Of a stretch of DNA of 62,875 nt, positions 2,785 through 58,082 are shown in pieces; the first letter of the stretch is position 1; every line of letters begins with the position of its first letter. The notes under the pieces were generated by a model. That model ran no database searches. It saw only the letters and a list, made by a program, of their open reading frames with translations, and was not told the DNA's origin. A program made the translations under genes and the position numbers. Source of the DNA: Candidatus Woesearchaeota archaeon (GTDB taxonomy: Archaea; Nanobdellota; Nanobdellia; Pacearchaeales; GW2011-AR1); contig CAZJPE010000004.1 of assembly GCA_964547875.1 (NCBI GenBank), forward strand, positions 30,598 to 93,472, given 5' to 3'.

Positions 2785-3009
2785 ACCCGTCATAATTTCG
2801 ATACATAGGTCTTCTATTTTTGTAAAGCCATGATTTAGCATAATGTATAGGCAAATCCAATTTTTTTGAATTTTGTAGGATAAAAGATAAATAGCCTCTA
2901 TCTATAAAAATGCAGATTTTTGTTTTATATAATGTTTTAGAATTTTTATTTCATTAATTCATCTTAACTTTATAAAAAGGATTAAAAAGATAGTCTTTCT
3001 TTTAGAGAT

Positions 3010-4281
3010 ATGGCAGAGCTTAACTTTCATCCTGGAGATAGAGTTAGATTAAGATTGGCTCTTGAGGAGTTAGATGGGGTTGTTTTAGAGAGCTCTGATG
3101 CAGGCGTTTTACTTTTGAAATTGGATTCTGGCTATAATATTGGAATTCCCAAAGAAAATATTTTAGCTGGGAGAGTTTTAAAGAGGTTTAATGAAGAGAA
3201 AGGGAAATTTCCCTTGCCTGAACAAAAGAAGGATTTGAAAAGTATAGGACTAATAATTACTGGAGGGACGATTGCCTCCAAATTAGATCCTAAAACTGGG
3301 GGAGTAAAACATTTGACTGGAATTGAGGAATTTGCCAGATTTTATCCTGAATTGTTTGAGGTTGTGAATGTTAAGAAGATTGAGATGCCTTTTATGATAG
3401 CCTCTGAATCGATGACTAGCGAGCACTGGAGCAAAATTGCCAAAAGCGTTGAGAAGATCTTGGAGGATTCAGATATTAGCGGAGTGATTGTGACTCATGG
3501 CACTGACTTTTTGGGGTATACTGCTGCTGCCTTATCTTTCTTTTTGCGTAATTTGGGCAAGCCAGTTGTACTCACATACTCGCAGAAAAGTATTGATAGG
3601 GCTTCTAGCGACGCTAGTCTTAATTTAGAGTGTGCTGCGAGAATGGCTATTTCAGACGCTGCAGGAGTATTTGTAGTCGGGCATGCTTCAATTAATGACG
3701 ATTTCTGCTATGCCCTGCTTGGAGCGAAAACGAGAAAGATGCACAGTTCAAGAAGAGACGCTTTTAAGGTTGTTAATTCAGAGCCAATTGCTAAGGTTTG
3801 GAAAGATAAAGTTGAATTTCTTAGCGCTTATAAAAAAAGAGACGAAGAAAAGAGGATTGAGCTCGATGTTAATTTTAATGATAAAGTTGCACTTATTAAA
3901 TTTTATCCAGGGCAGGATGCAAGCATTTTGGATTTTTATGCTTTAAAACATAAAGGGATTGTTATTGAGGCTGCTGGATTAGGACATCTTCCTGTGACAG
4001 AGGCTTCTCATAATTGGATTCCTAGATTGAAAAAGCATATTAAAAACGGATTTATTGTTTGCGCCGCCGCCCAGACAATTTATGGAAGATTGGACCCTCT
4101 TGTTTATTCTAATGGTAGGGAATTAGTTGATGCTGGCGTTATATTTTTAGACGATATGCTGGCTGAAACTGCGTTGGTAAAATTGGGCTGGGTTTTGGGG
4201 CATCGTGGTTGGATTACTAGGGTCAAGGAAAAAATGCTTGAGAATTTTAGCGGAGAGATTGGCGAGAGATTAACCGTTTGA
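3010..4281 (+). CDS. gatD: Glu-tRNA(Gln) amidotransferase subunit D
   Basis: N-terminal KLDSGYNIG domain, asparaginase motifs TGGTIAS and HGTD, SQKSIDRASSD. Confidence 0.95.
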   Translation: MAELNFHPGDRVRLRLALEELDGVVLESSDAGVLLLKLDSGYNIGIPKENILAGRVLKRFNEEKGKFPLPEQKKDLKSIGLIITGGTIASKLDPKTGGVKHLTGIEEFARFYPELFEVVNVKKIEMPFMIASESMTSEHWSKIAKSVEKILEDSDISGVIVTHGTDFLGYTAAALSFFLRNLGKPVVLTYSQKSIDRASSDASLNLECAARMAISDAAGVFVVGHASINDDFCYALLGAKTRKMHSSRRDAFKVVNSEPIAKVWKDKVEFLSAYKKRDEEKRIELDVNFNDKVALIKFYPGQDASILDFYALKHKGIVIEAAGLGHLPVTEASHNWIPRLKKHIKNGFIVCAAAQTIYGRLDPLVYSNGRELVDAGVIFLDDMLAETALVKLGWVLGHRGWITRVKEKMLENFSGEIGERLTV

Positions 4282-49822: not shown

Positions 49823-50710
49823 TTAGGCAGTCGTGATAATTTTTTCTTTTTCTGTCAGCAAAACTGTGTGCTCGGCTTGCGCGACTTTTTTTCCTGATTT
49901 TTCTATTAATTGAGGGTAGTGATGCAATAGATTTGAGGATTCTATCTGCCTTAATGCGAGCAAACCACGTGTGCCAAATTTTTTGTAAATCCATCTTGCA
50001 CAGAATGGAAGAGTTTTATATTCTTCTTTAATAAACTGCAAAACAGAGCGGGCGAAATTATCTCTTATGTTTCCTTCTTTTTGCAGGTGATATATTCCTG
50101 ACGGCTTGCCTTCTTTCACAGAGCCGACTCCTAATGTCGTGAATGGCTCTATTGCATATAGCCCTTGCGAGATTTTTATTTCTTGGGCATTGTCAAAGTT
50201 TGGAATAGTAATGCCTGCATGAAGATTATAATTTGATATTGAATGCCCAGAGAGATTTATTATCGGCTGAACATTATTTTTTTTGCATGTTTTTTCAATT
50301 ATAGAGCCTATGTCTCTTAATTTTACGCCCAGATTTATTTTTTCAAGCGCATTGTCTCTTGCTTCTTCTGCTGTTTTTATCAGGTTTTTATTTTCTTCTG
50401 AATTTTCCAAGTCAAGAGAGAAGGCGGTATCTGCTATATGCCCATTGATATGAATTCCTATGTCTATTTTTAATAAGCTATGGGCTTTTGTTTCGTCATT
50501 ATAAGTAGGGGTTGAATGCGCTGCGACTTCGTTTATTGATAGATTTACAGGAAAAGCGGGCTTTGCATTTAACTCGAGAATTTTATTATCTATTTTATTC
50601 GCAATTTCTAATAAAGGCGTGTCTTTCTTAATTATGGATTTTGCGTATTCTATTACTTCTTTGGCAATTTTTCCTGCCTTGAGCAAATTTTCAATTTCTT
50701 CTTGATTCAT
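49823..50710 (-). CDS. map: Methionine aminopeptidase type II
   Basis: AAH, KIDIGIHING.IADTA, NLSGH, AIEPF, AQAEHT. Confidence 0.95.
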   Translation of the reverse strand: MNQEEIENLLKAGKIAKEVIEYAKSIIKKDTPLLEIANKIDNKILELNAKPAFPVNLSINEVAAHSTPTYNDETKAHSLLKIDIGIHINGHIADTAFSLDLENSEENKNLIKTAEEARDNALEKINLGVKLRDIGSIIEKTCKKNNVQPIINLSGHSISNYNLHAGITIPNFDNAQEIKISQGLYAIEPFTTLGVGSVKEGKPSGIYHLQKEGNIRDNFARSVLQFIKEEYKTLPFCARWIYKKFGTRGLLALRQIESSNLLHHYPQLIEKSGKKVAQAEHTVLLTEKEKIITTA

Positions 50711-51515
50711 TTTTGCGATGTTTTACAATTTTTGGTTTGTATGATATTATAAATATGGTTATTATAAGGATAATTATCAAAAGTGCTAGATTAAATAGTA
50801 TTTGATAATTATTTTTAATTCTCTGTGTTTTGCCTGATGAGATATTTTGCTTTTCTTCATAAGATATATTTCTCCCGCTTAGAGGCGTTGTTTCATTTAT
50901 TTTATCTTCTGGTATTTTAGGAGGCTCTGTTCCTGATGCTTTTTCTGAGGAGCTCCCTGACGAGCCTGTGCCTTGTGATTGACATTGGCCGCAATCTGTT
51001 GGACAATTGCTGCAGGATTCTTCTATGTTGCAGATCGCATTTCCGCAGGAAGGCGCAGAGTTATTTATAATGAAATTTACTTCTGAAAAATTTATTCTAT
51101 TGGCGCTGTCGTTTGCGTATATTTTTAGAGCATAATTTCCTTCTGGAAGACTAATATAAAAAGGGGCAAAAATTGTGACATTTTCTTGATCGTTTATAGA
51201 GTACCATATTGAATCGAGAGCGATATCGAGAATTGTGTAATTGACTAAGAGAGGCGTTACATTATTATATACTGTGTTCTTTGGATTTATTATATTAACA
51301 ATAGGTGATTCGCCATCAATAACAATTCTTATATCGCTTTGCTCGGATGGGCTAAGAGATTGCTGTGCTTGGGAAAATGGTATCAAGAAAAAAATAAGCG
51401 ACAATAGGATGTAGAGAACTGCGTACAAAAATGTGCTATAATTTACGCAGTTCTCTAATGGATAACTGCTGATACGTGAGCTATAAACAATGTAGTTATC
51501 CATAATGTTATTCAT
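50691..51515 (-). CDS. Secreted, C-terminally anchored protein (Ig-like domain, Cys-rich module, S/G linker, TM); putative filament base
   Basis: Signal, LSPSEQSDIRIVIDG, Ig-like domain, CGNAICNIEESCSNCPTDCGQC, TM with basic tail; start uncertain. Confidence 0.7.
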   Translation of the reverse strand: MNNIMDNYIVYSSRISSYPLENCVNYSTFLYAVLYILLSLIFFLIPFSQAQQSLSPSEQSDIRIVIDGESPIVNIINPKNTVYNNVTPLLVNYTILDIALDSIWYSINDQENVTIFAPFYISLPEGNYALKIYANDSANRINFSEVNFIINNSAPSCGNAICNIEESCSNCPTDCGQCQSQGTGSSGSSSEKASGTEPPKIPEDKINETTPLSGRNISYEEKQNISSGKTQRIKNNYQILFNLALLIIILIITIFIISYKPKIVKHRKNESRRN

Positions 51516-51539
51516 GATAAAGAATAATTTTTCTATTAT

Positions 51540-52118
51540 TTAAACTTGCTTTCTTCTTTTTATCAGTTTAGCAGAAATTATTATACTGAGTATTATTATG
51601 ATAATTATAATTATTGCAGATATCGTACTTATGTTTGTTTTTTTTAGGTTCGCTGGCTGTTCCGTCGTATTAATTAGAACCGCTGTTTTTTCTCCAACTA
51701 TGATTGGGAGTTCTCTTATATGTTGCAAGCGGAGCTGTATGTTTCCTTCTTTTTCTTCTGGACTAGGCGTTACAGCAAATTTTATGCTGTAAGAATCGCC
51801 TATTTTTGCATTTTGCGGAATAGACACTTTTATTATTATTTTATTATCATTTGAGCCAGGAGGAACTATGAACTCTTCTTCGCTGATGATTTCTGCTATC
51901 CCTGCACTTTCAATTAAAGAGACAATGGCTCTTGCAGGAGATTTTTCTTCAATGCTATTTTTGAGAGTAAATGATACTTCTTTTGTCTCGCCAGGATACA
52001 TTTTTAATGGATTGTCTTCCCAATATGGAGAATCTACGCCAAGAGCTAGAACAGAGCCTATGCTAATTACGAGAGTTAATATCAGAGTTGCGAATTTTAG
52101 CTTATTGTCATTATCCAT
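51540..52118 (-). CDS. Secreted Ig-like protein with C-terminal TM (paralog of 53062-53655)
   Basis: GVDSPYWEDNPLKMYPGETKEVSFTLKN. Confidence 0.75.
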   Translation of the reverse strand: MDNDNKLKFATLILTLVISIGSVLALGVDSPYWEDNPLKMYPGETKEVSFTLKNSIEEKSPARAIVSLIESAGIAEIISEEEFIVPPGSNDNKIIIKVSIPQNAKIGDSYSIKFAVTPSPEEKEGNIQLRLQHIRELPIIVGEKTAVLINTTEQPANLKKTNISTISAIIIIIIIILSIIISAKLIKRRKQV

Positions 52119-52990
52119 CCACTTGCTCCTGTCGCAGAATAGAACTGCGAACTGATTGCGCTTGGTACTAGTGTAAGGCAGTATGCTATTGTTTCTGTAT
52201 TCGAGCCAGATGGCCCTCTTGGGAGATTAACACTGGTTATTGGAGTTATAACATTATTTGACAAAGCATTTCCTGTTGAGCATACTACGGCTGCTCCTGA
52301 CGAACCTGCTGCTCTAAGATTGGTTGCGGGGATGAGCTCTGCAGGAAGAGTTTCTCCAGCGAGGTCGAAAGCTGTGATGCTTAATGTGCCCGGAGGGGCC
52401 TGGAAATTGCCTCTATTTGTAACTGTAGTTGGCGAGGACGATATAACATTAGACGCTCCTTGGACAACTGTTGGGAAATTTACTATTGTAGGAGATATTG
52501 TTATATCTGTTAATAAATTAACTGAAAACGTTGACGAACTTGTTCCTGTTAATCCTGCAGAGTCTTGAATGCTTACTGCAACATCCCATGTTCCAGGTGC
52601 ATCAAAATATTGCATTGTTACTGTACATTGATATGTTCTTTCAGTACCTGTTTGGGAGAGAAATACACAACTTCCTGTTCTTGTTGGCTCACCTGTTTTT
52701 GTAAAGCTTGATGATGCAGAGGCATCATTTAGGTCTGTGACATCATTAGGGTCTGTGGCAGTAAATGTAAATAAGACATTTGTTGTAGAAGGAGCAGGAT
52801 TTAGACTTACAGGAGAGATTGGCGATATACTTGTGATTGATGGGGCAACATTTCCTACTTCAATTCTGACATCAGTGGACTGAGAAGGGGCTAATCTTAC
52901 ATTTTTCTTGAACCAATCAGCAATACCTGCTGTCGCAAAAGGCAGAATCATCAAGACCAATAATGTTATTACAATAAACTCTTTTTTCAT
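52097..52990 (-). CDS. Secreted two-domain beta-sandwich protein; putative major filament subunit
   Basis: Signal peptide, S/T-rich, four Cys, no TM anchor, own TATA; ends FYSATGASGWIMTIS. Confidence 0.75.
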   Translation of the reverse strand: MKKEFIVITLLVLMILPFATAGIADWFKKNVRLAPSQSTDVRIEVGNVAPSITSISPISPVSLNPAPSTTNVLFTFTATDPNDVTDLNDASASSSFTKTGEPTRTGSCVFLSQTGTERTYQCTVTMQYFDAPGTWDVAVSIQDSAGLTGTSSSTFSVNLLTDITISPTIVNFPTVVQGASNVISSSPTTVTNRGNFQAPPGTLSITAFDLAGETLPAELIPATNLRAAGSSGAAVVCSTGNALSNNVITPITSVNLPRGPSGSNTETIAYCLTLVPSAISSQFYSATGASGWIMTIS

Positions 52991-53061: not shown

Positions 53062-53655
53062 TCATATGGCGTACTCGCGGTATTTATGGTTTTTTATTAG
53101 TAGGGATATTATAAAAATTAATATTATAATAATCATCGCTATTATTGATATAATTATTGTTGAGAAAATCTTTGCAGTGGATTTTGGAGATTCTGAAATT
53201 TCTGATGGTTGCTTTTCTTCTACCGGTTTTTGTTTAATTTCTTCTCCACTAATGATCACAGGAAAAGAGGCTGTTATACCTGTTGAGAGCTGTAACATCT
53301 TTCCTTCATCTTGCGATACTTGCTCGAATAGGATTGTTAGCTGATATTTGTCATTGACTTTGGTATTATTTGGAATTTTTATTTTCAAATTGGCTTTTAT
53401 GTCGTTTCTGCCAAATGGGACAGGATAATTTTGATTTTCAAGCGTTGCAATTTCGCTTCCGTTTATTATTTCTGCCCTTAATGTGAGGTCTTTTCCTCCC
53501 ACCATGTTTTGAAGGATGATAGGAACCTCTTTTGTTTCTCCAGGCACCATTATTAGCGGGCGATCTTTCCAATAAGGAGGAGTGGCTCCGAATGCGCATG
53601 CAAAATTAATTAGTAATAAAACTATTACTATTGGGATAGATGCTTGTCTTATCAT
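53062..53655 (-). CDS. Secreted Ig-like protein with C-terminal TM (paralog of 51540-52118)
   Basis: GATPPYWKDRPLIMVPGETKEVPIILQN. Confidence 0.75.
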   Translation of the reverse strand: MIRQASIPIVIVLLLINFACAFGATPPYWKDRPLIMVPGETKEVPIILQNMVGGKDLTLRAEIINGSEIATLENQNYPVPFGRNDIKANLKIKIPNNTKVNDKYQLTILFEQVSQDEGKMLQLSTGITASFPVIISGEEIKQKPVEEKQPSEISESPKSTAKIFSTIIISIIAMIIIILIFIISLLIKNHKYREYAI

Positions 53656-56600
53656 TTTGGCATTGATTTTAATTTTTTAATTGCTCGCGAGTAGAGCGTA
53701 TAAATATTTCTTGGGTCTTTATTTAATATTTTAGAGATTTCTGTGTTCTTTAATTCTTTTTCTCTTAAGTTATAGATTAGTGATTCTAGGATGCTAAGCT
53801 TTCTGTTGGAGAAGATATCTATTGGGATAGAGATAGATGTTTTTCTTATGTTTATTTTCTCTTTCATTTTTCTGACCGCATTTCTATAATTTATCCAAAT
53901 TGTTCTTTGGTTTCTGTTAATTAATTTTTCAATTTCACTGAATTTTAATCCGAGGTTTTCTTTTAGGTATTTGGCTAAGGACTCTGCCGCACCTATTTTC
54001 TGATTAAACAGTTCTATTGGAATTTTTATTTCCTTTGTTTTCTTTATTAACAATAATTCATCTAGGGTTGTATCATATTTGTCTTTTAATTTTTCATTTA
54101 GTACTTCTAACAGATTTTCTTTGGTGAGGACTTTCTTCCTTTTCTTTCTTTTTATCTTAAGAGTGGCAAATGCGAGACTAATCTCCCATATACTGCCTAT
54201 TAATGTTGAGTATCTTTGTGCTTTTAGGTTGTCAGGGACATTTTCCAGGCAGATGAATAATTGCTCTTGTCCTTCGCCGATTGAGTTGTCTCCTCTAAGG
54301 AGCGTTGCTCCTGCAATAAGCGTTGTTGCAGCATGAGCCATTATAGTTCCAGGATCAGAAAGCGAGCATAAGTTGACAGTATGAACAGTAAAACTATTAG
54401 CAGGAATTTTATAAGATGAATCTGTTTCTCCTAAAATGTCAAATGCCTTGACTTGCAGTATTCCTTCTTTATTACATGTGTTACTGATAATAATCGGATT
54501 GTTTGAAGCAAGTTTTTCGGCATCGCCTGGAAAGAGAGTTGGCCATTCCCAGAATGCTGGAGATATTGTTATACACGCGGTTTCTAGCAAAATAAATGTT
54601 TCAGAATATGGGGCTGAAAATCCATTGCTTTGATCTTGAATTTCCGCACTTACTGTCCATGTTCCAGGAGCATCAAAATATTGTATTCCTATTGTACAGC
54701 TATATTGCGTGGTTGTTATATTGATATCAGAGACAAAAGAGCATGCGCCTGTTCTCGTTACAGAATCTTTTGTAAATTGCGTAGTTATAGTTGCATCGTT
54801 TATATCAAATGCCCCGTTTGCATCTGTGACTTGAACAGTAAATGTCACATCTGTTATGCCTGATTCTGTTACTATTTGATCTGGGATGTTTGAGATATCA
54901 TCTATTGTCGGAGAGATATTATCGCAGACCCCTGTCCATTCTGTGCCATCAAGATTGAAGGTTTTTGTTGCAACTGCTCCAGTATTTGTGGTATATGCAA
55001 AGAGGAATTTATTGTCGCAGATAGAGGTTTGTGCTATTGGATTAGGATTTGGTATTAGCGTGTCTTTTCCATAGATGTCAAATAATAGACTAGTTGTATT
55101 TTCATCAGACGCTAGAATAAATGGGCCTTGCCTTAAGATTCCAGAGGAATCGTATATTGCTGCTTGAATATTATCTGCATTTCTATCATTCCAAGCAACA
55201 GCAAACCAATCTATTGGATCTGAACTGCTTTTTATTGTTGCCATTGCAATCCTTGATTGTGTGCCAGAATTTGCATCTACAAGAGTAGGAGCAAGAATTA
55301 TGTTATTGTTTACGTCTCTTATAGCAATTTGAATATTTTGTGAGGCAGAATCATACCAGCCCATTGCAAAATAATTGTTATTTAATGATGTAATTGCGAC
55401 TTGACCTGTTTCTCCTATGTTTGTGTCTATATCAGCTAGGACAATATTTACACTGTTTTGGTCTCTTATTGAGAATGTTGCATCGTTAGATGCATCATCA
55501 AAATATATTAATGCAAATCTTGTATTTGTTATGGAGGTACATGAAATGAGATTTTGCAATCCTAATGTGGCGCCAACAGATGTATCAATATTTGTTTCTA
55601 AACCAGCACCCCATGTACCATAATTGACTGTTATTACATCTGCGTCATCTTCTATATCATCTATATAACAGGCCTGAAATCTATCGAGCATATCGATAAT
55701 TTCTATATCAACTGAAGGAGTTCCTACTGCAGTCTCGATATCTGTAGCAGGAATGTTTATGCTTTCATCTTTATTATAGACAGCATATGTTATATCCTGA
55801 TCAATACCATCGTACCAACTTAAGATAAACGTAGAAGAATCAATAGCTTTAACAGCAACTCTTGAATTACCATTTACTTCTGTATCTGCGTCAATTGTAT
55901 TTGTTAATGGAGTGCCATTTGTACCATATATGATAAATGATATGTCATCTTCTGTGTCATCAACCCAAGCAAAAACAAAAGTGCTATTATCAAGAGTTGT
56001 TAATGCGACATCTAGGGAAGGTTGGATATCCGCTATAATAAATGGGTCAATAATATGATCAAATTCCAGATACGAATCTTTTTTCTCATTAAGACTTTTT
56101 ATTTTAAGATCAAAAGTATCATGCTCGCCCTGTAATTCTGTTAAATAGATTGTATAATAGCCTTCTTTTTTTATTATTGGAAATTCTGCTATTTTCTGCG
56201 TCGTGTTATAATAATAAATTTCTATTATTATTCTTTCTTTTTCTGGATTTCTCGCATAGAGCGTTATATCTTTTGTAGAATCAAGTTTTTCCTCAAATGA
56301 AACTCTAATAAACTCGTTATGATAAATTGGTTCGCTCCATATTTCATCTAACTCTTTTACTTGTTCATAAATATTAGAAATAAGATCTTTATTCTCATCT
56401 AGATGTTCTGCGTTTGTTATTTGTATTATTATTTCAAAGATATCATCTGATGAAGGAGCGTTCCACTCAACGCTATCTAAATATTCATTATTATCTGTAT
56501 CAAGCGCTTTAAATTCTAAATATTTCTTTTCTTTATTAGAATATATTTTTATAAATCTTTTATCTTTAGTGATTTCCTCTATGCTAATAGAAGCCAGTAT

Positions 56601-58082
56601 ATTTTTATATTCTATTCCTTCTGGGACAGAAATAGCAACTATCTTTTTCTCGTTTAATTCTTCTTCTTTTAGAGTTGGAGCAGGTAAGACATATTCTATT
56701 TCATATATTCCGGAATCTTCTTCTAATTTTATGTCTGTTTTATTCTCGGAAATTATTTCTTTCTCGATTTGATCTTTTTTAATTTTAATATCCGTTGCCA
56801 TTGCCGGGATTTTAATATTTATTTCGCCTTCTTCTTTTATTATTTTCTTTTTCCATTTTACTGGTTTTCCTATTGCAATTCTTTCTTCAGAATTGTCTTC
56901 TATTATGCTGAAATTATTTATCTCTAATGATGTATTTTTTGAGAATGAGATTATTTCGGAATCATTCAAATTATTTGAACTATCCCAGCAGTAATATCTG
57001 ACGCTATAATCTCCATCAGTTATATTTAAATTTGATATGAAATTAACATTATCTTGGGATTGCATTGTGTAGTTGCTTATTCCTTCGTCAAGTGAATAAT
57101 TGCAATCTCCTTTTTCGTTAAGAGCAAGCTCAAAATCAACTAATTCTAAATTGTAAATAGCATTGAATTGCGGTTTTTTTATTGTTAGTTTTGGAGGGAT
57201 TATGTCGGAATAACTAACTCTGAAATATAGGGCATTGAAATTGAATATATCCTGCCCTTCACCATTAATTTTCAGTGCTTGCGCTTTTGCAAATGCTTTT
57301 GCGCCGTTTTCATTAAAGAAATTATCACAAATCCAGTTTTCGTCTGCTGTAAAATCAATGAATTCCAATCTAGAAGAAGATATTTCATTGCAATCTATGT
57401 TTTTTTCAGTCCATGATTCTCCTGCATTTGCGTCTACACCAACAACGCACTGATGGTCTTTAGAATTATTTAATGTATAGAATTCATAATATAGTAGCAC
57501 TTGGTCTATTTTATCGCAATTTATAATTGAATTGTCGTGGGATTCTATACTAATTCCAGCATAAGTTGATAATGAATTAAATATTGTTTCTTTATTGCTC
57601 GCATAAATTTCTTCACAGGAATTAGAAAATAAGTTTTTATCTAGTTCTTCACTTTGTTTTAGGCATGATTGCATCTTTAATTCTATTGTTTCTTTTTCTG
57701 TGGGCGCGAGAAATAATTTTTGTTTTGAATATCGAGATGATAGCAATATAGTGAATATAAATAAAGATATTAAAAGTATAAAGATAGTTATTACAAAAAC
57801 TGAAATTAAATTTTTTTTTATATTTCTATCATAGTCTTCTACAAGCTTTTTACACGAATCAATGTATTTATCATAGTAATTTATCCATTCTTCTGCTGAT
57901 TTATTACCTGGCAAATTATTCAATATTTTTTTATATTCATCAAGAGAAATTTTTCTATTTTGATAATTTATCAAGGTTTTTTGCACCTTATTTATTATCT
58001 CTTTTTTATACCCTTCGGCCAGATAGATTTTCTTATTTAGTTCTCTTTTTCGTTCTTCTAATTGCTCTTTTTTTGATGACAT
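53652..58082 (-). CDS. 1476-aa multidomain surface protein: coiled coil, TM, Ig-like, propeller-like repeats, subunit-like module, tandem HTH
   Basis: TM near aa 92-114; repeats F..AW.D....DI...IY; module sharing QYFDAPGTW with 52097-52990; two IPI.(L/I)F...ES...(F/N).EI.K..N...R.I...Y..A repeats. Confidence 0.8.
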   Translation of the reverse strand: MSSKKEQLEERKRELNKKIYLAEGYKKEIINKVQKTLINYQNRKISLDEYKKILNNLPGNKSAEEWINYYDKYIDSCKKLVEDYDRNIKKNLISVFVITIFILLISLFIFTILLSSRYSKQKLFLAPTEKETIELKMQSCLKQSEELDKNLFSNSCEEIYASNKETIFNSLSTYAGISIESHDNSIINCDKIDQVLLYYEFYTLNNSKDHQCVVGVDANAGESWTEKNIDCNEISSSRLEFIDFTADENWICDNFFNENGAKAFAKAQALKINGEGQDIFNFNALYFRVSYSDIIPPKLTIKKPQFNAIYNLELVDFELALNEKGDCNYSLDEGISNYTMQSQDNVNFISNLNITDGDYSVRYYCWDSSNNLNDSEIISFSKNTSLEINNFSIIEDNSEERIAIGKPVKWKKKIIKEEGEINIKIPAMATDIKIKKDQIEKEIISENKTDIKLEEDSGIYEIEYVLPAPTLKEEELNEKKIVAISVPEGIEYKNILASISIEEITKDKRFIKIYSNKEKKYLEFKALDTDNNEYLDSVEWNAPSSDDIFEIIIQITNAEHLDENKDLISNIYEQVKELDEIWSEPIYHNEFIRVSFEEKLDSTKDITLYARNPEKERIIIEIYYYNTTQKIAEFPIIKKEGYYTIYLTELQGEHDTFDLKIKSLNEKKDSYLEFDHIIDPFIIADIQPSLDVALTTLDNSTFVFAWVDDTEDDISFIIYGTNGTPLTNTIDADTEVNGNSRVAVKAIDSSTFILSWYDGIDQDITYAVYNKDESINIPATDIETAVGTPSVDIEIIDMLDRFQACYIDDIEDDADVITVNYGTWGAGLETNIDTSVGATLGLQNLISCTSITNTRFALIYFDDASNDATFSIRDQNSVNIVLADIDTNIGETGQVAITSLNNNYFAMGWYDSASQNIQIAIRDVNNNIILAPTLVDANSGTQSRIAMATIKSSSDPIDWFAVAWNDRNADNIQAAIYDSSGILRQGPFILASDENTTSLLFDIYGKDTLIPNPNPIAQTSICDNKFLFAYTTNTGAVATKTFNLDGTEWTGVCDNISPTIDDISNIPDQIVTESGITDVTFTVQVTDANGAFDINDATITTQFTKDSVTRTGACSFVSDINITTTQYSCTIGIQYFDAPGTWTVSAEIQDQSNGFSAPYSETFILLETACITISPAFWEWPTLFPGDAEKLASNNPIIISNTCNKEGILQVKAFDILGETDSSYKIPANSFTVHTVNLCSLSDPGTIMAHAATTLIAGATLLRGDNSIGEGQEQLFICLENVPDNLKAQRYSTLIGSIWEISLAFATLKIKRKKRKKVLTKENLLEVLNEKLKDKYDTTLDELLLIKKTKEIKIPIELFNQKIGAAESLAKYLKENLGLKFSEIEKLINRNQRTIWINYRNAVRKMKEKINIRKTSISIPIDIFSNRKLSILESLIYNLREKELKNTEISKILNKDPRNIYTLYSRAIKKLKSMPK

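Follow-up and report, generated by a model that had tools for sequence, protein, structure and literature searches.

A conserved N-terminal strand shared by secreted and membrane-anchored Ig-like proteins of a DPANN archaeon is a candidate docking strand

Introduction

Bacterial pili, archaeal threads and cannulae are known examples of donor-strand assembly. In CPR bacteria, as far as the accessible text of a 2026 preprint goes, Pam pili consist of the pilins PamA and PamB, the chaperones PamC and PamD, the tip PamT and the anchor PamR; they are assembled by donor-strand exchange with membrane-anchored chaperones, and their anchor has an extra N-terminal strand and a C-terminal transmembrane (TM) helix (PMC13278184). 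The threads of the archaeon Sulfolobus acidocaldarius are built of Saci_0406 and capped by Saci_0405; their donor strand is N-terminal, according to the available part of the report on them (PMC9715654). A literature search on donor-strand and Ig-like surface proteins of DPANN archaea found no paper describing such a system in DPANN. One paper lists Ig-like surface proteins of Nanobdella, in its accessible part without a donor- or docking-strand mechanism.

Here we describe five genes in a stretch of 62,875 nucleotides (the window) from Candidatus Woesearchaeota archaeon (assembly GCA_964547875.1, contig CAZJPE010000004.1, positions 30,598 to 93,472). All of them are on the minus strand. A giant protein of 1476 aa (53652..58082) has a cytoplasmic N-terminus, a TM segment, a large ectodomain, a module like the 297-aa protein, a short hydrophobic and polybasic stretch and a helix-turn-helix (HTH) tail. 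The secreted 297-aa protein (52097..52990) has a signal peptide, a short helix (IADWFKK), a tail strand, a complete Ig-like domain (residues 47-160) and a C-terminal beta-sandwich (161-297), and it has no membrane anchor. The 274-aa protein (50691..51515), which probably begins some 30 codons after its first ATG, has a signal peptide, a tail strand (58-66), one Ig-like domain (72-150), a Cys-rich knot, a Gly/Ser linker and a C-terminal anchor (helix 230-258). The 192-aa protein (51540..52118) has a signal peptide, one Ig-like domain and a C-terminal membrane anchor, and the 197-aa protein (53062..53655) is its paralogue (32% identity, E=1e-18). The first 22 nt of the 192-aa gene lie within the end of the 297-aa gene, and the first 4 nt of the 197-aa gene overlap the giant's stop; a paralogous locus, too, has a gene of this type that overlaps the end of the module-bearing gene before it. 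Neither Pfam nor NCBIfam gave a match above the curated cut-offs for any of the five proteins. In the same databases none of the five matched the TasA/camelysin families or a SipW-type signal at E<=1, which would have placed them with TasA/camelysin and archaeal bundling pilins, and no match to the PapD or Usher families was found among them. The gene order giant, 297-like, 192-like and 274-like is seen again in relatives. The module was detected in 56 of the 151 genomes and 38 of the 84 genera searched in this order, and at 50% identity public data hold 2,097 representatives of its family. This uncharacterised set of five genes occurs widely among DPANN archaea.

Comparison with known assembly systems

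The locus resembles the Pam system, as far as the available text of the preprint describes the latter, in many respects. Both belong to ultrasmall episymbionts that have no outer membrane. In both, the subunits consist of two beta-sandwich domains with paired cysteines, Ig-like proteins (chaperones in Pam, putative helpers here) have a C-terminal TM helix, one member has no donor strand, one operon holds all components, and there is no usher. The anchor PamR is like the 274-aa protein in its extra N-terminal strand and C-terminal TM helix, a likeness of architecture only. On the same textual basis there are several differences. The donor of Pam pilins is a linker between an N-terminal sandwich and a truncated C-terminal Ig domain, whereas the candidate here is N-terminal and lies before the first domain. 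Pam chaperones are PapD-like proteins of two domains, whereas the 192-aa and 197-aa proteins have one domain and no PapD match in Pfam. Unlike in Pam, a strand-less module here ends a giant membrane protein with an HTH tail. No sequence relationship between the two systems was seen, and the host here is an archaeon.

Threads, in the part of their description available, are similar in that the subunit is beta-rich, glycosylated and secreted by Sec and signal peptidase I, and in that the N-terminal donor strand (here a candidate) is conserved in homologues. The product of a gene neighbouring the thread gene has a strand and no acceptor site, being donor only, as would be the 274-aa protein. Among the matches listed for the proteins studied here, no thread entry was seen and no homology to threads was detected. 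Chaperone-usher pili (Fim/Pap, CFA/I) have a tip, shaft and terminator logic of the same kind and an N-terminal extension with alternating hydrophobics; the 297-aa protein has such an extension (residues 41, 43 and 45), its donation being putative. Unlike these pili, the locus has no usher, no periplasm and no PapD-family match, and its subunit has two domains, with the last strand present in the model. The 192-aa and 197-aa proteins are also like the WxL-interacting proteins of Firmicutes (DUF916, PF06030), which have a signal peptide, an Ig-like domain and a C-terminal anchor, and whose genes likewise are in operons of cell-surface complex proteins. However, there is no Pfam PF06030 match, the partners and wall type differ, and the likeness rests on the common fold.

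A shared segment at the N-termini of the 297-aa and 274-aa proteins

The 297-aa protein carries the segment LAPSQSTDVRIEVGNVAPSITSISP (residues 33-57, nt 52820-52894), which is composed of a hinge motif (LAPS), a strand (TDVRIEV), a junction (GNVAP) and the first Ig-like strand. The 274-aa protein carries LSPSEQSDIRIVIDGESPIVNIINP (residues 54-78, nt 51282-51356), with LSPS, SDIRIVI, DGESP and the first Ig-like strand in the same order. The peptides quoted for both in the original prediction are exact, and the likeness is beyond chance. The segments are identical at 9 of 25 positions without gaps, and none of 20,000 shuffles reached their BLOSUM62 score of 54. The whole genome has 906 non-nested ORFs of 100 aa or more. 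In a search of the N-terminal 160 residues of each, the best non-self match of the 297-aa segment was the 274-aa segment (54; runner-up 34). Whole-protein BLASTP aligned the two proteins at E=2e-5 over the signal peptide and the shared segment; the alignment extends into the first strands of the Ig-like domains behind it, so the earlier statement that they are otherwise not obviously similar was nearly, though not entirely, right. By a profile of the 297-family N-terminus the 274-aa protein ranked second among the 906 ORFs, yet only at E=0.14.

The segment is also conserved within each family. Among 40 sequences with 43-65% identity to the 297-aa protein of the window, P35, T39, V41 and V45 are conserved to at least 90%, and N47, P50 and I52 never vary. 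All 12 sequences of the 274 family have S55 and P56, with L54 conserved to at least 90%. The strand proper, T39-V45 (52856..52876), was examined in 138 unique stand-alone relatives of the 297-aa protein, the sample also used for co-variation. The hydrophobic positions 41, 43 and 45 are its most conserved ones (entropy 1.72, 1.31 and 1.03 bits, vs 2.5-2.8 bits at 40, 42 and 44), and, taken whole, the strand (2.06 bits) is better conserved than each of the two domains (2.21 and 2.18 bits). The aligned sequences have the conservation pattern of a strand with one face buried.

Predicted structures indicate that this face is not buried in the adjacent fold. All 50 of the listed structural alignments of the 297 N-terminal domain, which are to complete Ig/PKD-like domains, begin at model residues 45-50. 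In the 297 monomer model (mean pLDDT 92.6), DSSP assigns no strand in residues 30-50 and none before residue 51, and the block means of pLDDT are 57 (21-30), 68 (31-40) and 89 (41-50). In the 274 model, which is weak, residues 49-67 have a pLDDT below 50. In these AlphaFold monomer models the shared strand is outside the Ig-like domain behind it and is packed in neither; a strand packed into its own domain, which would have counted against the original prediction, was thus not seen. The C-terminal domain of the 297-aa protein, joined to the first by a linker of only about 3 residues (158-160), is modelled confidently throughout (pLDDT 92-98). Its final strand is present in the model, short and split (284-285 and 293-296), beside a 10-residue F strand (265-274), and the alignments that span the two domains are to complete Ig-like domains in tandem, with a high rmsd. 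Hence no classically truncated C-terminal fold is evident, of the kind seen in chaperone-usher pilins, whose Ig fold misses its last strand and so has a groove. In contrast, the thread head, as the available report describes it, is a single domain in which the missing strand leaves a clear gap.

Co-variation of the strand with the C-terminal domain

If the strand is donated, it is expected to co-vary with the C-terminal domain of the module. Such co-variation was seen. Position 42 of the strand, which is polar (R in the window), couples with alignment column 282 (F283; codon at 52142..52144) with an MIp z of 8.8, rank 2 of 42,486 column pairs, in an alignment of about 132 effective sequences. 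F283 belongs to SSQFYS, a conserved stretch located between strands F and G of the C-terminal domain. The pairings appear chemically sensible: R goes with F/Y in 26/28 sequences (a class mostly from one clade), K with D in 3/7, N with S/A/P in 26/29, and S with T/V/I in 29/43. Furthermore, 17 of the 20 strongest partners of positions 38-45 are in the C-terminal domain (binomial p=0.005 vs its share of 55%), vs 7 of 20 for the junction positions 46-50. We then counted phylogenetically independent pairs on a tree built without the tested columns. For S/T42 vs T/V/I282 there were 12 such pairs, of which 7.4 changed in the same direction and 0.2 in the opposite one (median p=0.016); the other three of the four tests had just 5 pairs each and were non-significant (median p=0.25). 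Other inter-domain couplings (65-192, 118/120-190/192) were considered for telling contacts in cis from those in trans, and this was dropped because it would over-interpret a noisy matrix.

The hinge motif and its distribution

The hinge motif is L-[AS]-P here, and [ILV]-T-G stands at the same place in orthologues of other genera. Signal peptidase I disfavours proline at -1 or +1. On both grounds L-[AS]-P does not look like a signal-peptidase site, and the suggestion that it might be a processing site is not borne out. The predicted signal-peptidase site of the 297-aa protein, read from its sequence, is ATA|G (residue 21/22), and about 16 further residues, comprising the short helix and the hinge motif, precede the strand at 39; these residues are conserved. 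In threads, by contrast, the strand begins at the cleavage site with a conserved Asp that forms an isopeptide bond, according to the accessible description.

The motif is found beyond the two proteins. It stands behind the TM segment in 9/9 fetched giants of the window's type, and S/Q-T-G does so in 3/3 of a second type. In the window's giant, the LAP that had been noted behind the TM segment was confirmed: the segment LAPTEKETIELKMQS (residues 125-139, nt 57666-57710), directly behind the TM segment, has the LAP hinge motif and an alternating strand. Genome-wide, the motif follows the signal of other exported proteins, in 22 of 255 ORFs with an N-terminal hydrophobic segment, vs 204 of 6,863 background windows of 36 residues (3.0%). 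An exported 1023-aa protein on another contig of the genome (C9) carries the motif, and the strand behind it looks like the ordinary first strand of its own lectin-type domain, so that the motif alone is no marker of a free strand.

This distribution raises the question whether the segment is a general signal for membrane exit or maturation (a hinge, a peptidase recognition site or a glycosylation site), in which the strand has no pairing role. The interchange of L-[AS]-P and [ILV]-T-G is what a helix-breaking hinge would allow, and in the T-G lineages the strand usually has an N-x-S/T sequon. We nevertheless consider such a signal unlikely. Neither a hinge nor a sequon explains the strict alternation and the strong conservation of positions 41, 43 and 45, or the preference of the strand couplings for the C-terminal domain; moreover, the strand has no sequon in the window's genus, and L-[AS]-P is a poor peptidase site, as noted above.

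The strands of the two proteins follow each other across genomes

The strand of the 274-type protein follows that of the 297-type protein genome by genome. Tail segments were cut out by anchoring on the conserved proline. In 18 genomes, the summed similarity of the two segments within a genome was 725, vs 534 +/- 38 when shuffled (0/20,000), and the equivalent of position 42 was identical in both strands in 12 of the 18 genomes, vs a shuffled mean of 3.8 (0/20,000). Among the 13 genomes with the ITG-type motif only, own-genome similarity was 562 vs 492 +/- 23 (30/20,000). In the four genomes of the window's genus, own-genome pairing was no better than shuffled (131 vs 133; 17 of 24 permutations reach it). 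Gene conversion, which homogenises giant and stand-alone modules in some genomes (L029), could also inflate the likeness of tails within a genome. In one relative (L011), the 274-type protein consists of a signal, LGPSDVKITVGE, a Cys-rich knot, a linker and a membrane anchor and nothing else. This strand-plus-anchor protein fits the expectation that the base of the assembly is donor only.

These results bear on whether the tail could instead fold back on the C-terminal domain of its own 297-aa chain, with no polymer formed and with the likeness to the 274-aa protein due to common descent. A contact within one chain would produce the co-variation of 42 and F283 just as well, residues 41-50 are placed fairly confidently in the monomer model, and the two domains seem, from its pTM of 0.77, to be arranged in a defined and possibly compact way. 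However, residues 30-50 make no beta pairing in that model, and a single chain gives no reason why the strand of the module-less 274-aa protein should obey the same residue rule in 12/18 genomes or why the L011 protein should be hardly more than a strand and an anchor. With the usual up-down topology of seven strands, the N-terminal domain would also start at its distant pole, away from the C-terminal domain. We regard such self-complementation as quite unlikely.

A donor-like strand obeying the position-42 rule was also sought in 192-type sequences, and no consistent pattern was found. The tails might instead dock on the 192-aa and 197-aa proteins and not on the module, with these small proteins serving the giant, the 297-aa and the 274-aa proteins alike as membrane dock or chaperone. 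This would explain why tails of different proteins co-vary, and it suits a membrane-anchored type of protein that is the sole member of the conserved set without a tail and whose gene overlaps a module-bearing one in both loci. Structural neighbours of the Atlas model of the 192-aa protein include a cluster of PapD N-terminal domains (TM 0.57/0.63) and clusters of WxL-interacting proteins (TM about 0.5). Docking of this kind nevertheless seems rather improbable, as the coupling that was measured links the strand with the C-terminal domain of the module itself, a search for longer, fused forms of the 192-aa protein found none (weak evidence), Pfam and NCBIfam hold no family match, and the 192-aa protein looks by sequence like a complete single sandwich (its Atlas model having a pLDDT of just 0.71).

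The giant protein

Residues 1055-1304 of the giant (nt 54171..54920) are homologous to residues 47-297 of the 297-aa protein (36% identity, E=1e-37). The original prediction had the giant module lacking the strand. This is correct at the module junction, where the alignment starts at residue 47 of the 297-aa protein, and it does not hold for the giant as a whole, which has its own LAP and strand at residues 125-139. In giants, the stretch before the module, at the place equivalent to the tail, is the last strand of whichever domain precedes; thus the free tail looks like a last strand without its domain. When the giants' own N-terminal strands were compared with their modules by the position-42 rule, the results were mixed, and the register was uncertain. 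At the co-varying site the giant has R, vs F in the 297-aa protein, and both free strands (297 and 274) carry R. The giant's R at this site does not fit the pairing rule read from the alignment.

Giants of the window's type continue directly from the module into 12-16 hydrophobic residues, a polybasic run and a tail of the sigma-70 region 4 type. In the window, the tail behind the module (53655..54167) has the polybasic run KIKRKKRKK and then two HTH units. Because this stretch and the tail follow the module directly, the giant module is probably membrane-proximal and not the distal tip. This affects the pilus of tip, shaft and base that had been envisaged, with the giant as acceptor-only tip. 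The coupling of the strand with the C-terminal domain, the tracking of the tails and the donor-only L011 protein agree with it; the giant does not suit its role as tip, since it is not strand-less, is probably not distal and has R at the site.

Proposed mechanism

We tentatively propose, giving it slightly less than an even chance, that the tail serves for docking or strand donation and binds, on another chain, the C-terminal domain of a module. The tail would be a hinge motif plus one amphipathic beta-strand, foreign to the Ig-like domain behind it. It would dock in trans, by donor-strand or edge-strand pairing, on the C-terminal beta-sandwich near SSQFYS (strands F/G). The acceptor module would be that carried by the 297-aa protein and, as a fusion, by the giants. 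The 297-aa protein may be both donor and acceptor, which would make chain formation possible. The 274-aa protein, with a tail, an Ig domain and an anchor and without a module, would be donor only and would tie module-bearing proteins to the membrane. The 192-aa and 197-aa proteins, which are tail-less and anchored and whose genes are translationally coupled to those of module-bearing proteins, may hold or cap the acceptor site.

A bolder version of this docking is a long shot. Here the locus would encode usher-less donor-strand assembly in this DPANN order, a counterpart of the Pam pilus, in which strands clip 297-type subunits to each other, to the strand-plus-anchor protein and to giant adhesins, and the small tethered Ig-like proteins would be chaperones. 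In the giants and in some 297-type proteins the chain runs on through the membrane to DNA-binding tails like sigma-70 region 4, so that the surface assembly could report host contact to gene expression.

Biological significance

DPANN archaea live attached to other cells, and how their attachment surfaces are built is largely unknown. The shared strand, being outside the folded domains of its carriers and co-evolving with a site on another domain, probably joins the proteins into an assembly anchored at the cell surface, of a type so far undescribed in these archaea. If the strand docks between subunits, a large family of hypothetical proteins would become a defined assembly with testable contacts (R42/F283), and the principle of donor-strand assembly would extend to DPANN archaea.

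The five-gene set and its proteins

The window's source genome comprises 13 contigs (0.95 Mb), and the public labels on relatives of the window proteins are Nanoarchaeota or Nanobdellota. Five genes lie head to tail on the minus strand and encode a giant protein of 1476 aa (53652-58082), a 197-aa protein (53062-53655), a 297-aa protein (52097-52990), a 192-aa protein (51540-52118) and a 274-aa protein (50691-51515). The 197-aa gene overlaps the end of the preceding gene by 4 nt and the 192-aa gene does so by 22 nt. None of the five proteins reached the curated cut-offs in Pfam and NCBIfam. Pairwise comparisons revealed that the two-domain module of the 297-aa protein (residues 47-297) recurs in the giant at 1055-1304 (36% identity, E=1e-37), that the 192-aa protein is a paralogue of the 197-aa protein (E=1e-18), and that the Ig-like domain of the 274-aa protein is similar to a giant domain near residue 340 (E=7e-4). 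Orthologues of the 274-aa protein begin about 30 residues later, at the signal peptide (51425-51515, minus strand, in the window ORF); translation probably does not begin at its first ATG. Similarly, the 297-aa protein begins at M14 in its database copy (284 aa).

The 274-aa protein contains the Cys-rich motif C-G-x3-C-N-x3-E-x-C-x2-C-P-x-D-C-G-x-C at residues ~153-180 (50980-51060, minus strand), and behind it come a Gly/Ser linker and then a membrane anchor. Unrelated large surface proteins carry the same combination as an anchoring cassette at their C-terminus, and it is also found at the end of a 1978-aa protein on contig C1 of the same genome. The giant has about seven repeats of roughly 45-50 residues each at residues ~680-1045 (~55000-56050, minus strand), whose pattern, read by eye in the translation, resembles F-x-[FL]-[AS]-W-x-D and D-I-x-[FY]; these look like beta-propeller blades.

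The shared N-terminal segment

The original prediction described a strand common to the 297-aa and 274-aa proteins. This observation is confirmed, and it extends wider than stated. The segments (52820-52894 and 51282-51356, both minus strand) read as quoted, and 9 of 25 residues are identical without gaps, a score that none of 20,000 shuffles reached. When the first 160 residues of the 906 ORFs of the genome were compared, the best non-self match to the 297-aa segment was the 274-aa segment (54 vs 34 for the next), and a profile of the 297-family N-terminus ranked the 274-aa protein second of 906 ORFs, though only at E=0.14. The segment is kept in orthologues. For the 297 family, 42 homologues were found and 40 aligned; the database copy of the window protein and two partial sequences were excluded. 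Positions N47, P50 and I52 do not vary in this alignment, and conservation is at least 90% at P35, T39, V41 and V45. For the 274 family, 12 homologues were found, and S55 and P56 are invariant in the 12 rows of an alignment of 11 of them with the window's translation, the window's database copy being left out.

The segment consists of a hinge motif, L-[AS]-P-S, then seven alternating polar and hydrophobic residues (TDVRIEV in the 297-aa and SDIRIVI in the 274-aa protein), and a short junction (GNVAP and DGESP, respectively) leading into the first strand of the Ig-like domain. Other genera of the order have [ILV]-T-G as their hinge, often I-T-G-x-A-T. Orthologous giants show one form or the other at the same position, so the two are equivalent. 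Lineages with the T-G hinge (related loci L013-L032 and family members) usually or nearly always have an N-x-S/T sequon in the tail strand, in the register N40-x-S42 or N42-x-T44, and the two registers accompany different residues at alignment column 282; no such sequon was found in the tail strand in the window's genus. L-[AS]-P had also been proposed as a possible processing site. Cleavage there is not likely, since signal peptidase I disfavours a proline adjoining the scissile bond and ordinary A-x-A-type sites, read by eye as ATA/G in the 297-aa and SQA/Q in the 274-aa protein, lie upstream of the hinge.

The tail strand and the adjacent fold

The predicted models indicate that the tail strand is not part of the Ig-like domain behind it. 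The 297-aa model (mean pLDDT 92.6, pTM 0.77) has its first strand at 51-55 and no secondary structure at residues 30-50, with block-mean pLDDT of 57 (21-30), 68 (31-40) and 89 (41-50). In a structure search with this model against 48,161 solved chains, all 50 of the alignments listed begin at residues 45-50, and many span complete Ig- or PKD-like domains of 85-105 residues. For the 274-aa protein the model is poor, with a mean pLDDT of 55; confidence is moderate in the Ig-like domain (72-150), and residues 49-67 are unstructured with pLDDT below 50. In giants, what stands at the tail's position ahead of the module is the closing strand of another domain, be it propeller-like, lectin-like or Ig-like. 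Thus, the free tail looks like a last strand without its domain. In the giant of L029, a related locus, this stretch closes a 274-like Ig domain, and the module begins almost identically to the module of the neighbouring stand-alone protein.

Co-variation of the strand with the C-terminal domain

We analyzed 138 unique stand-alone members of the 297 family (about 132 effective sequences). The strand is more conserved than the two domains (entropy 2.06 bits vs 2.21 and 2.18 bits), in the pattern of a strand buried on one face. By corrected mutual information, position 42 of the 297-aa protein and column 282 (F283) rank second of 42,486 column pairs (z=8.8). F283 belongs to a conserved stretch, SSQFYS, that links strands F and G in the C-terminal domain. 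R at position 42 is paired with F/Y in 26 of 28 cases, N with S/A/P in 26 of 29, S with T/V/I in 29 of 43, and K with D in 3 of 7. Of the 20 strongest partners of positions 38-45, 17 are in the C-terminal domain, compared with 7 of 20 for the junction (46-50) and 10 of 20 for signal-peptide columns. In phylogenetically independent pairs, taken on a FastTree tree built without the co-varying columns, change in the opposite direction was almost never seen. The S/T class gave 12 independent pairs, 7.4 in the same and 0.2 in the opposite direction (median p=0.016); it alone had enough pairs, and the other three residue classes, with 5 each, were not significant.

The tails of the two proteins also track each other. 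Of 27 related loci, 17 have readable 297-like and 274-like proteins and were used together with the window; L020 was dropped as a duplicate of L029, and the other loci had no 274-like match in the stretch covered. Tail similarity was 725 within genomes vs 534 +/- 38 for cross-genome pairing (reached by 0 of 20,000 shuffles), and 562 vs 492 +/- 23 in the 13 genomes with the T-G hinge (30 of 20,000). The four genomes of the window's genus showed no within-genome excess (131 vs 133). Both tails have the same residue at the equivalent of position 42 in 12 of 18 genomes, where shuffling gave a mean of 3.8. All these counts overstate significance because kin are not independent. Since the strand of the module-less 274-aa protein obeys the pairing rule of the module's C-terminal domain, this is most simply explained if the 274 strand binds in trans to a module on another chain, or if both tails share a third partner. 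In locus L011 (G142:C4), the ORF at 2978-3514 (plus strand) encodes a 178-aa 274-type protein without an Ig-like domain, consisting of a signal, the tail strand LGPSDVKITVGE, a Cys-rich knot, a Gly/Ser/Pro linker and a membrane anchor; its 297-like neighbour reads FAPSDVKVRI.

The giant and the arrangement of the subunits

The original prediction placed the giant at the tip, as an acceptor only, with the 297-aa protein as shaft and the 274-aa protein as base. A strand given to another subunit gains support from co-variation and tail tracking; the proposed geometry does not. The giant carries LAPTEKETIELKMQS, its own motif and strand, directly after its transmembrane segment, and the motif is at this place in 9 of 9 fetched giants of the window type. 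The same nine and the window's giant all have, immediately behind the module, a run of 12-16 hydrophobic residues, then six to eight K/R, then a tail containing helix-turn-helix units. These post-module parts (residues 1306-1476 of the giant, 53655-54167, minus strand; relatives P0056-P0090, P0105, P0108 and P0160) have one to four units of the sigma-70 region 4 type. Against Sigma70_r4_2, the window giant's tail scored 23.8 bits, under the cut-off of 25.7; of seven tail-bearing relatives scanned, two were above the cut-off and four others below. Some 440-510-aa proteins combine the tail strand, the module and the giants' same C-terminal part. The helix-turn-helix tail is probably cytoplasmic, and if so the module would be at the membrane, not at the tip; we infer this topology, as the hydrophobic stretch is short for a membrane helix. 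A probably cytoplasmic DNA-binding tail on a giant surface protein is suggestive of a regulator tethered to the membrane.

The co-varying column holds R in the window's giant and F in the 297-aa protein. Position 42 is R in both free tails, and the N-terminal strand of the giant itself has E at the matching position (register read by eye). By the pairing rule, and judged from a single residue pair, the free tails would fit the 297-aa protein's own C-terminal domain better than that of the giant. In summary, the shared segment is likely a docking strand, and a tip-shaft-base pilus is not likely.

Distribution

Within the order, the module was found in 56 of 151 genomes (the window's among them), in 29 of 69 high-quality genomes and in 38 of 84 genera. 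It was also found in 2,097 public protein representatives at E<=0.001, 604 of them at E<=1e-30; proteins of ~300 aa match the profile from positions 1-15 and giants from position 33 onward. The order giant, 297-like, 192-like, 274-like recurs in the eight longer loci examined, and shorter loci hold the 297-like and 274-like portions of it. Contig C1 carries a paralogous surface-protein island at about 27.4-50.5 kb (locus L004, C1:30000-46000). The island encodes a 2012-aa giant that has the module at its end, two 192-like proteins, a 356-aa 297-like protein whose tail reads QLGPFNATVTIQS, and other large exported proteins bearing the motif; it is interrupted by a single ORF on the opposite strand.

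The motif was scanned genome-wide, as the original prediction had advised: of 255 ORFs with a hydrophobic segment, 22 have [LFM][AGS]P no more than 30 residues behind the first such segment, vs 3.0% of background windows, and about eight of the 22 look homologous to the tail by eye. Some of the 22 are clearly of another kind, namely a nuclease-like protein and one resembling type IV pilins. Contig C6 (30513-31301, minus strand) encodes a membrane-anchored protein of thioredoxin fold (C-P-F-C), read by eye, in which T-I-T-G and L-L-A-P-P, the two forms of the hinge, both follow the transmembrane segment.

Relation to known donor-strand systems

In archaea, donor-strand assembly is established for threads (PMC9715654); related papers deal with cannulae and bundling pili. 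The closest analogy to the five-gene set is the Pam pilus of CPR bacteria (PMC13278184). Its pilins consist of two domains and have paired cysteines, a C-terminal helix tethers its PapD-like chaperones to the membrane, its tip lacks a donor strand, and its anchor has an additional strand at the N-terminus and a helix at the C-terminus. The five-gene set has a comparable cast of parts, but it differs in the place of the candidate donor strand, in its single-domain putative helpers and in giants with helix-turn-helix tails. No sequence relationship to threads, cannulae, bundling pili or the Pam pilus was seen. Because parts resemble those of the Pam pilus and no such relationship was seen, we propose with moderate confidence that the five-gene set works like donor-strand assembly and is not a member of a named family; overall, the donor-strand interpretation is partly supported. 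The module's paired cysteines would need an oxidoreductase, such as the thioredoxin-fold protein of contig C6.
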